Below are positions 25,316 through 27,399 of a DNA stretch of 64,000 nt, piece by piece (the stretch's first letter is position 1; every line of letters begins with the position of its first letter). The notes beneath the pieces are model-generated. The model did not search any database. It was not told where the DNA came from and saw only the letters and a list, made by a program, of their open reading frames with translations. The position numbers were made by a program, and so were the translations under genes. The DNA is from a virus (taxonomy: Duplodnaviria > Heunggongvirae > Uroviricota > Caudoviricetes): IMG/VR virus record IMGVR_UViG_2541047857_000014. The stretch is one strand, 5' to 3'.

Positions 25316-27399
25316 ATTTTCAGCAAGGGGACAGTTATTGCCACGAGTCCAAGGGGACAGTTATTGCCACGAGTCCAAGGGGCGCAAGCGCCCTGGTCGG
25401 CTGCCGCCTCCTGAATGTCAACGGCCTTACGAACCATTTTCCACTTCACCGCATGAGTGCAGATCTTGCCCTCTGCAATGGGTGACCAGATGCCATAAAT
25501 ACGAATACCGTGATCGCCATAGGCGGTCGGCTCTTCGTTGATTTCATAAGCGGTTCTGATGAGGTGATATTTGCGGGGAACCAGTACGCCGCCCTGCTTC
25601 ATGATGTAGGTGGCAAAACAACCAGCATCAGCAGCGGCTAGGATGGCATCAAGGCGCGGGTTATCCAGTACCGGCGCACCTGCTTTTTTGTCCCCCTGTT
25701 GCCTTGCCGCCTGACCAGCCAGCAATCGCAGTTCACGGTAAGCCTGACGCCCCGGAATGCCAAAGAAGCGGAATTGCTGAACACGATGCAGAGACGCCCA
25801 GGCATTAACGTATTCAGCGTTATCACGCAGGGATTTACCCGTTTCCTTGCTGATCTCGCCAGCCAGACCACGCCCGTCAATGTTCTTACTGATGTATTTC
25901 GCGATGTAGCTTGTTGGCGTACCTTTGCGCGGGTTTATCAGCTCAGACTTAAAGCGTGGTTCCGTGTTATTACCCAGCTCCTCGCGGTCTTCACGAATGG
26001 CAAACTTACGCAACAAAGCAGTAATGGCGCGGCGATCTTTTTTGCGCATAAAACACAACAGGTGCCAGTGAACTGTACCGTCATGATGCGGCTCAGCCAC
26101 CCGCACGCCATACCAGCGTAATCCGGCTTTGTGCATCGCCTTACGAAATGCAGCAAACATACCGACCAGATAATCACTGCTTTGTCTTACCGTCGCATTT
26201 GTCCAGGTCGGGTTGGGCCTGCCGTTATTTAGCGTGGAATGGAAACGTGACGGACAGGTGATGGTGTAGAAAACGGCGCAGTCACCGCGCATTTCCGCGA
26301 TAAGCTCCAGACCTTTAACACAGGCCATCATCTCATTGCGGCGATGCGCAGGGTTGCTGCTGCTGGCGTTTACCACGTCTTCCATATCCAGCGTGTCGCC
26401 GTCTTCGTTCACCAGTTCATGAGAACGGAAAAACTCCAGCGACTTACGGCGCTGCTCACGTTTATGCATCACGGCTTCATAGCTGACATAGGGAGATGCT
26501 TTTTTGCTGACCAGGCAAACAGCACGCAACTGCTCTTCCCGCCATTCGCAACGCATCTTCCATAATTTCCGATACCACCAGTCGGCGCATAACATACGCG
26601 CCAGCGAACCCGGAATGAGTTCATAAGGCACGGGTTTACGGCGGTTTCTTTTCCGACGGAGTTGCTCAAACGCAGGCGGGATAACATCCAGACGCAGGGT
26701 TTCCGCTGCCACCTTTTCCCATGTTTTGCGGATTTCTTCTGGCTTAATGTCATCGGTGGCATACAAATCACCACAAGCTGCATCAAGGCACATGCTCATA
26801 TGCGCGGCGACAAGGGTAGACAGGCGCTTCACCTGATCCTGACTCATTTCAGGCAGGATCAGCAGGCCGTCCAGCCCTTCATGGCTTGCCATAAAGCGAA
26901 AAGAAGTGGATAGCTGACAGTCGCGTACATGCTCCAGTCGTTCCAGACATGGCTTAATCGTCTCACGCAAATAGCGGGAATAAGCCTTTGGCCTGCCCAG
27001 GCTGCTGAAGTATTCAATACGTTGCATCAGCGGCTTGCTGATATGGGAAGGCTGGGCGTTAACGTCCGCCAGAATGACCATGTCTGGATTAAAACGCTGC
27101 TGCTCATGCGCCAGCTTTGCCCGGCTAATGAGCTTATCCTGCTCCATTTCGCGTTGGACAGGATCACGGGATTCATTAAAGAAATAACGCTCCCAGGCCT
27201 GATCACTCAGTGCCTCGCGGCGCAGCTGTTCCTGCTCGTTATCGGCAGCGTACAGAGTGATCAGGTTTGAAAGCGCAGAAACCGGCGCGACTTCCGCCGG
27301 GTCCAGATAAGGGTTAATGGCCTTTTTCGGGCTGTTCCATGAGAACGCTGCGGCAGCCTCGTTAAAGCCGCAGCAGTTGTTCATATCGGCATGACTCAT
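25312..27399 (-). CDS. A: replication initiation endonuclease A (rolling-circle initiator)
   Basis: 695-aa ORF with gpA-like sequence including [30 protein letters not shown]. Confidence 0.85.
25324..25385. repeat. perfect 26-bp tandem direct repeat (2 copies plus a 7-nt partial third) at the 3' end of gene A
   Basis: caaggggacagttattgccacgagtc twice in tandem then caagggg. Confidence 0.9.

Follow-up and report, generated by a model that had tools for sequence, protein, structure and literature searches.

Tandem duplication of a predicted rolling-circle origin core within the frameshifted replication gene A of a P2-like Escherichia coli prophage

The gene considered here lies in a 64,000-nucleotide stretch of Caudoviricetes DNA (IMG/VR record IMGVR_UViG_2541047857_000014), the whole 64 kb of which we call the window. 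The sequence of the window is identical to that of Escherichia coli S88, and also to those of MS7163 and N53; MS7163 and S88 are members of one clone, O45:K1:H7 (PMC6106082). The region is a P2/186-like prophage, with ogr, tail, lysis, capsid, terminase, portal, cargo, DinI/Tum-like, A, Dam, CII, CI and integrase genes. Gene A encodes the replication endonuclease and is read from the minus strand of the window; the sense strand in what follows is the coding strand of this gene. Within it 26 nucleotides (nt) are perfectly repeated in tandem. The unit can be identified by comparison with P2 and 186 as the probable core of the replication origin, and its duplication puts the gene out of frame. 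The features of the locus are collected in Table 1.

Table 1. Gene A, its conserved motifs and the elements of the duplicated predicted origin, in window coordinates
Feature	Position	Strand	Remarks
Gene A, P2-family rolling-circle replication endonuclease, frameshifted	24959..27399	-	RefSeq S88 pseudogene 'replication endonuclease, frameshifted'
Truncated A open reading frame, 695 amino acids (683 native plus 12 out-of-frame residues)	25312..27399	-	stop TGA at 25314..25312
Stranded C-terminal part of A, 118 codons, open	24959..25315	-	first TTG overlaps the new stop (TTGA)
HUH metal-binding motif HHDGTVHWH, residues 438-446, kept	26062..26088	-	aligned with A of P2 and 186
Two-tyrosine active-site motif YIAKYISK, residues 498-505, kept	25885..25908	-	identical to the motif of P2 and 186
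GC hairpin GGGCGC-TT-GCGCCC	25380..25393	-	4 nt 5' of the first predicted nick; folded
CCCCTTG, the 7 nt 5' of the predicted nick (bond between 25376 and 25375)	25376..25382	-	also ends each unit
Predicted origin core copy 1 (GACTCGTGGCAATAACTGTCCCCTTG)	25350..25375	-	adjoins the hairpin; predicted nick just 5' of G25375
Predicted origin core copy 2 (extra)	25324..25349	-	second predicted nick, bond between 25350 and 25349; no hairpin directly upstream

Tandem Repeats Finder places the repeat at 25324..25382, with a period of 26 nt, 2.3 copies, 100% matches, no indels and a score of 118, and a separate repeat search returned two perfect 26-nt copies. Both bear out the initial annotation, which had described a perfect 26-bp tandem duplication with a 7-nt partial third copy, except that it set the end of the repeat 3 nt too far, at 25385 instead of 25382. 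The partial copy reads caagggg on the window strand, and it appears because the one-copy sequence already holds the heptamer CCCCTTG twice, 26 nt apart. When up to three mismatches are allowed the unit still occurs exactly twice in the window, where 100 shuffles give an expectation of 0, and a perfect 33-nt tandem self-match would be expected in 64 kb by chance only ~2e-13 times.

Since 26 is not a multiple of three, gene A is frameshifted. The repeat occupies nt 2025-2076 of the 2441-nt pseudogene, and the frame changes after residue 683 (codon 684), with the loss of 121 of the 804 residues from the C-terminus. Translation of the truncated open reading frame (ORF) agrees with the earlier description of two copies read in different frames before the stop. 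That description also suggested that the duplication might alter the C-terminus of A, which is right as to the change of frame but understates it, since the alteration is not a small one, and it placed the repeat at the 3' end of the gene, which is true of the truncated ORF only; in the intact gene of relatives it lies ~365 nt before the true stop. Removal of one 26-nt unit in silico gives an uninterrupted ORF of 804 amino acids (aa) in S88 and M8, and of 790 aa in another three alleles with two copies. In Salmonella phage RE-2010 and similar one-copy relatives the A gene has 2415 nt and encodes 804 aa, and the truncated A is not a complete ORF of ~804 aa like those of the functional phages of the lineage. 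The exact 695-aa product is found on 53 public contigs, and its cluster comprises 1816 proteins, those listed being mostly of 795-806 aa.

The part of the protein that remains is predicted to be the catalytic one. In the repaired A the Pfam family Phage_GPA (PF05840) is matched over its full profile (1-321 of 321) by residues 188-510 with E = 4.3e-128, and by this match the truncated A keeps the whole domain, together with the HUH and double-tyrosine motifs. The tyrosines of the latter we take, from work on P2, to be the catalytic residues. The C-terminal tail matched no Pfam family, and the repaired protein as a whole matched no NCBIfam family. The tail of S88-type A shares a S(K/R)xERRELxxRLR motif with that of 186 A. 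Among 88 distinct one-copy alleles its ratio of nonsynonymous to synonymous polymorphism (pN/pS) is 0.18, compared with 0.17 in the 600 nt upstream of the origin, which indicates that the 121 residues lost in S88 are under purifying selection in one-copy phages. The new TGA stop overlaps the TTG that opens the 118-codon tail ORF (TTGA, window 25312-25315), and separate translation of the tail by termination and reinitiation at this point is conceivable, if unsupported.

What is the sequence that has been doubled? The GenBank record of P2 (NC_001895) annotates position 29892, within gene A, as 'nick site at ori', and that of 186 (NC_001317) has a rep_origin at 28576, again inside A, located by similarity to P2. 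The P2 origin at 29,892 within the gpA ORF has a nick-site sequence that is conserved among the Peduovirinae (PMC8537503). Aligned at these positions, with a slash marking the nick, the sense strands read GCGCCTCG/GAGTCCTGTCAATAACTGT in P2, GCGCCCTCTCG/GAGTTCTGTCAATAACTGT in 186 and GCGCCCCTTG/GACTCGTGGCAATAACTGT in the window. The 10-nt core CAATAACTGT is identical in all three, and TTG/GACTCGTGGCAATAACTGT matches the nick region of P2 (TCG/GAGTCCTGTCAATAACTGT) at 18 of 22 positions. The single coordinates in the P2 and 186 records fall on neighbouring Gs, consistent with a cut between them. We have shown from this alignment that the 26-nt unit corresponds to the origin core from the nucleotide 3' of the nick (nick+1) onward, inside gene A, where the protein is predicted to cut within GCGCCCCTTGGACTCGTGGCAATAACTGT, as G/GAC, and to become linked to the 5' end.

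The surroundings of the nick are also alike. The layout is GCGGC-ATC-GCCGC-GCCTCG/GAGTCCTGTCAATAACTGT in P2, GGGCGC-TTCT-GCGCCC-TCTCG/GAGTTCTGTCAATAACTGT in 186 and GGGCGC-TT-GCGCCC-CTTG/GACTCGTGGCAATAACTGTCCCCTTG/GACTCGTGGCAATAACTGTCCCCTTG/CTG in the window, so that a GC hairpin stands 4-7 nt upstream of the nick in each, and in the window only copy 1 retains it alongside. The stem of 186 is the same as that of the window, while the others differ, including those of two more distant IMG/VR loci, L158 and L161 (GGCGGC-CCT-GCCGCC or GGCGGC-CCA-GCCGCC), at the same position. The z-scores for folding of the hairpin are weak, from -0.4 to -2.6, and we treat them as supportive only.

How widespread is the doubled core? 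A 33-nt core is present at 2789 places in 2434 complete E. coli genomes; matches of 99% identity or better come from at least 1610 records. One copy is found in 2426 of the 2434 genomes and two copies in the other eight, which are S88, MS7163, N53, M8, two Res13 isolates, EC261 and 19KM1863; in all eight A is annotated as frameshifted. No intact related phage with two copies was found in the 72 phage records that contain the origin core, every one of which has a single copy. The IMG/VR collection holds more than 120 one-copy contigs and, among the matches listed, five with two copies and one with three. The state of the related genomes and phages thus upholds the view that the duplication is derived rather than ancestral and, judged by these comparisons, one copy is both the functional and the ancestral state.

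The duplication also seems to have arisen more than once. We compared the flanks of the repeat (500 nt on its upstream side, 340 nt on its downstream side) across 116 loci, and found that every multi-copy allele is closest to a one-copy allele. That of 19KM1863 differs by one mismatch from L032 and by 13 from the nearest multi-copy allele; that of S88 differs by eight from L121 and by 17 from the nearest multi-copy allele; and one-copy relatives of the Res13 allele are 99.9% identical to it over 843 nt. On these distances the duplication appears recurrent, and a single origin is unlikely. Recombination could have shifted the repeat between backgrounds, so the number of events is uncertain. When one unit is removed from the A genes of Res13, EC261 and 19KM1863 (L005, L006 and L007) their nt 1-2027 are 100% identical, and 14-19 differing sites lie in the last 346 nt, all beginning 20-46 nt 3' of the core, a pattern suggestive of recombination with its breakpoint at the nick site or beside it. 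In a maximum chi-square scan of 105 haplotypes the breakpoints are spread from -400 to +200, a range beyond which, further upstream, the ungapped alignment fails.

The 26-nt unit is not the only sequence to have been duplicated at this position. The hexamer GACTCG is present two to five times in GZ2408P, 17MR471, 120899, ETEC-2265 and ten IMG/VR contigs, in frame and with 1 nt of microhomology; of the 1089 E. coli records in the bands of at least 95% identity, 41 have such an array. Strain RM10809-3 has an in-frame duplication of 21 nt within an intact A of 812 aa, and a Woeseiaceae metagenome-assembled genome (MAG) has one of 25 nt that puts an A-like ORF out of frame (...SSVNNCTF/EFCQ, then a stop). 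Neither of these two shows microhomology, and for this reason their boundaries are unambiguous and fall exactly at nick+1. The 6-nt cases, with two possible registers, and the 26-nt cases (two copies in S88 and the other two-copy alleles, three in one IMG/VR contig, all out of frame and with 7 nt of microhomology), with eight, are compatible with the same start. All the duplications found extend 3' of the nick on the sense strand. In the rest of 120 one-copy A genes (270 kb) Tandem Repeats Finder detected a few repeats of 15-28 nt, all scoring 40 or less; in 1.25 Mb of related prophage DNA it found other conserved short repeats outside the A gene, such as the 14-nt CTGCACATTCTGC, with no bearing on the duplication. 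As far as we could find, recurrent duplications anchored at the nick have not been described in the literature.

Several of these loci deserve further description. The Woeseiaceae MAG (CAZZKW010000064.1, locus L029, 4508-4542) comes from a gammaproteobacterium of marine sediment, and has a P2-type origin CCCTTG/GAGTTCTGTCAATAACTGT in the A-like ORF with its own frameshifting duplication from nick+1; downstream of it are type I restriction-modification and DUF3800-like genes, where P2-like phages carry cargo. It was the only P2-type origin among the nine loci given by a degenerate scan of GTDB genomes (CAATAACTGT-N(3-33)-TGKCAATAACTGT), the remainder (L023-L028, L030 and L031) being unrelated chance or low-complexity matches. 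In IMG/VR the loci L016-L019 and L022, with a period of 39, were likewise unrelated. L158 and L161 share the nick core and have the GACTCG hexamer twice; their A genes are more distant and run on for 265 codons past the origin. Another distant A, that of L014 (IMGVR_UViG_2531839591_000017, ~675-717), contains an imperfect in-frame duplication of the 33-nt core (...LVSSVNNCTEGAWSSVNNCTEGG...), the first copy of which has the nick context CTGGTTAG in place of CTTGGAG, as if one of two origins were disabled. The boundaries of this duplication cannot be assigned, and we left it out of the evidence for anchoring at the nick. The 21-nt allele of RM10809-3 might also be a 26-nt duplication followed by a 5-nt deletion; this is possible, yet it takes two events that together happen to start at nick+1, and a single duplication is simpler.

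The explanation that best accounts for the observations as a whole, and one in which we have considerable confidence, is that a duplicated origin core has frameshifted A, that the nickase itself is its likely author and that the prophage is impaired in its replication. Most likely, we infer, the duplications at this site are made by A through nicking, limited extension and rejoining. In such a scheme A would nick ...CCCCTTG/GACTCG..., leaving a free 3' end and a 5' end linked to the protein. The free 3' end could be extended a short way, either in an aborted initiation or when synthesis that is finishing a round runs on past the origin. An extension of 26 nt would bring CCCCTTG, the normal substrate for joining, to the 3' end once more, and ligation of this end by A to the linked GACTCG... 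would duplicate the sequence from nick+1 to nick+26. The same reaction halted at 6, 21 or 25 nt would generate the other duplications found at the site. After 6 nt the new 3' end would be CTCG, which is the natural left side of the nick in P2 and 186; the 6- and 26-nt lengths might therefore be the common ones because their new 3' ends mimic natural left sides.

The alternative that survives best is plain slippage, in which CCCCTTG heptamers 26 nt apart mispair during replication by the host and A takes no part; it would give the same element with the same effect. We consider this a distinct but minority possibility. The one-copy sequence has a perfect 7-nt direct repeat that exactly flanks the unit, a textbook substrate for slippage that requires no nickase, and the boundary of the 26-nt repeat is ambiguous over its eight registers. 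A three-copy allele exists and the hexamer number ranges from one to five, as would be seen in slippage-prone arrays; hexamer arrays could grow in this way once two copies were present. The GC hairpin directly upstream could stall polymerases, making a position-specific hot spot without any contribution of A. Against slippage, the 21- and 25-nt duplications both start at nick+1 with no microhomology to direct them, the duplications extend solely in the 3' direction, and no tandem repeat scoring above 40 is present elsewhere in the 270 kb of one-copy A genes. Overall this puts the nickase slightly ahead, although for the 26-nt allele of S88 the two mechanisms are not separable. The initial annotation had suggested a recent slippage duplication, and of this the derived duplication that changes the frame of A stands, while slippage becomes one of two live mechanisms, set against starts at nick+1 that lack microhomology.

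Further points weigh against the explanation that we prefer. The exact bond, and the assignment of the nick to the sense strand, are taken from two GenBank records, each with a feature of one coordinate, and from the P2 literature. The inactivity of the truncated A is a prediction from its sequence, and a long tail is not universally needed. That of 186 A is shorter than the tail of S88-type A, and the reconstructed one-copy A of the Woeseiaceae phage ends ~26 residues past the origin; across lineages the tail after the origin has a length of about 26, 84, 119, 142 or 265 residues. In its most general form, that the A nickase occasionally writes duplications into its own origin, so creating a self-inflicted hot spot and a recurrent, possibly reversible, route from active phage to grounded prophage, we advance the proposal tentatively, and it could well prove too broad. 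If it is true, A would either lengthen itself by Thr-Arg or longer in-frame repeats or inactivate its own gene.

What follows for the prophage? With A truncated, the S88 prophage is probably impaired in replication and carried passively by the chromosome, a reading that fits the absence of the two-copy allele from isolated phages. If the truncated A were active, a round that started at one copy and ended at the other would collapse the repeat and restore the gene. A further reading is a reversible switch, in which copy number (one, two or three) toggles competence for replication and the silent state is kept for the benefit of the lysogen. In its favour, closely related genomes do differ in copy number, and the duplication turns up again in other backgrounds; all the multi-copy alleles examined still have an open tail ORF; and the allele is fixed in the successful clone of S88, MS7163 and N53, with its product on the 53 contigs mentioned above. 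We nevertheless think such a switch improbable. Only eight of the 2434 genomes have the allele, and the two states are never seen together in one strain. Recent events would leave the tail intact just as well, and a 26-nt unit present two or three times alters its copy number far more slowly than do classical short-repeat switches.

It was suggested earlier that the repeat might be a structured DNA element such as an iteron, near the point where the downstream gene begins. The unit is indeed part of a structured origin, and two identical direct repeats in a replication region have the look of iteron-like initiator sites or of a regulatory repeat for the next gene, but we regard either role as very unlikely. 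Iterons are several spaced direct repeats, found in the non-coding origins of theta-type replicons and conserved as a set among functional relatives; here there is a single copy in nearly all the E. coli genomes and in every phage record, the unit is part of a coding sequence and puts it out of frame, and the P2 family replicates by nicking rather than by iteron-mediated melting. Nor is there a connection with the start of the downstream gene, the unit being the predicted nick-site core within A and the next annotated gene beginning more than 150 nt past the true A stop. Lastly, an artefact of sequencing or assembly can be dismissed, since we found no point in its favour and the same arrangement is present in eight complete genomes from different laboratories and platforms (S88, MS7163 and N53, three independent complete assemblies of one clone, agree, as do the five others) and in several IMG/VR contigs.

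Apart from gene A the prophage is in good order. Two of the 47 features in the prophage and its flank are flagged as pseudogenes, gene A and a DinI-like gene outside the prophage, and we have shown all the other prophage genes to be intact. Between the portal gene and the DinI/Tum-like gene there is a cargo slot, which in S88 encodes a hypothetical protein of 469 aa (window 22642-24051, minus strand). In the relatives L002 and L004-L008 its content differs from one to another, and includes a HEPN protein of the LA2681 family, DarT with a macro domain, a DUF4062 protein and an AIPR protein; the slot is a hot spot for defence genes adjoining gene A. A gene of the AIPR (abortive-infection-like) family is also present at window 12076-13776 on the plus strand, between baseplate gene V and a virion morphogenesis gene, its neighbours being on the opposite strand. 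Past the integrase end, window 34070-36889 contains genes for a PD-(D/E)XK nuclease and a LEM-3-like GIY-YIG protein and a frameshifted DinI-like pseudogene, possibly left over from a different element at this attachment site.

Gene A has been altered in other ways among these phages. In Escherichia phage 500465-1 (L001, NC_049342) it is annotated as two pieces flanked by IS21-like/IS100kyp insertion sequence fragments, and the linear record begins within A; this is another route of A disruption in the lineage. A P2-like genome from E. coli 13P477T was deposited as its own replicon (NZ_CP019275.1, 37,446 bp), and the chromosome has a copy as well. Its A gene, of 2424 nt, is 9 nt longer than usual and has a single origin core.

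In itself the locus is an ordinary pseudogene, already flagged by annotation pipelines, and a well-known kind of origin in a mutated state. It is less ordinary that the lesion lies exactly on the replication nick site, and that the same bond forms the left edge of independent duplications of 6, 21, 25 and 26 nt, in prophages as far apart as those of E. coli and of a marine gammaproteobacterium. If they are the work of the nickase, nature has here recorded the errors that an HUH enzyme makes in strand transfer, and one could read from them, with no biochemistry needed, which 3' ends it prefers to rejoin and how far synthesis overruns; they also suggest a simple way for P2-like prophages to lose, and perhaps to regain, replication. 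This bears on which of the 'intact-looking' prophages in pathogen genomes can still yield phage. Moreover, the 33-nt core is a precise marker by which to locate the origin in a very common prophage family.

The origin of the window closely resembles those that are known. As in P2, the nick site lies in the 3' part of A, with a GC hairpin a few nt on its 5' side, and the peptide encoded there is ...(V/G)NNC... P2 differs in having a single copy and an intact A of 761 aa, where the window has 26 nt doubled and A frameshifted; the A proteins are distant from each other outside the catalytic domain, and their C-terminal tails cannot be aligned. The origin of 186 has the same architecture, with an identical GGGCGC/GCGCCC stem, and the prophage of the window has a 186-like set of CI, CII, Fil and DinI/Tum-like genes. 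In contrast to the window 186 has one copy, an A protein that is naturally of 694 aa, and the nick context CTCG/GAG rather than CTTG/GAC.

Two further systems bear on the fate and the formation of the duplication. Where two rolling-circle origins are placed in tandem, as in f1, pC194 and pT181 constructs, replication initiates at one and terminates at the other, and the interval is deleted. Since the classical constructs behave in this way, the repeat would be predicted to collapse during lytic replication. The window is like them in having two predicted nick sites in the same orientation; they were engineered, with origins hundreds of bp apart, whereas its duplication is natural, with a spacing of 26 nt and a hairpin at the first copy only. 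In the pT181 plasmid, leading-strand synthesis runs 10-12 nt past the nick before the terminating strand transfer by RepC (PMC5703833). The new strand is thus extended past the nick while the initiator holds the 5' end, which is the intermediate that a nick-anchored duplication would need. RepC is a plasmid protein of the Rep_trans family, and the overrun oligonucleotide stays on the protein and inactivates it, instead of being written into the genome. By analogy, such an overrun may nonetheless serve as a precedent for the A protein.

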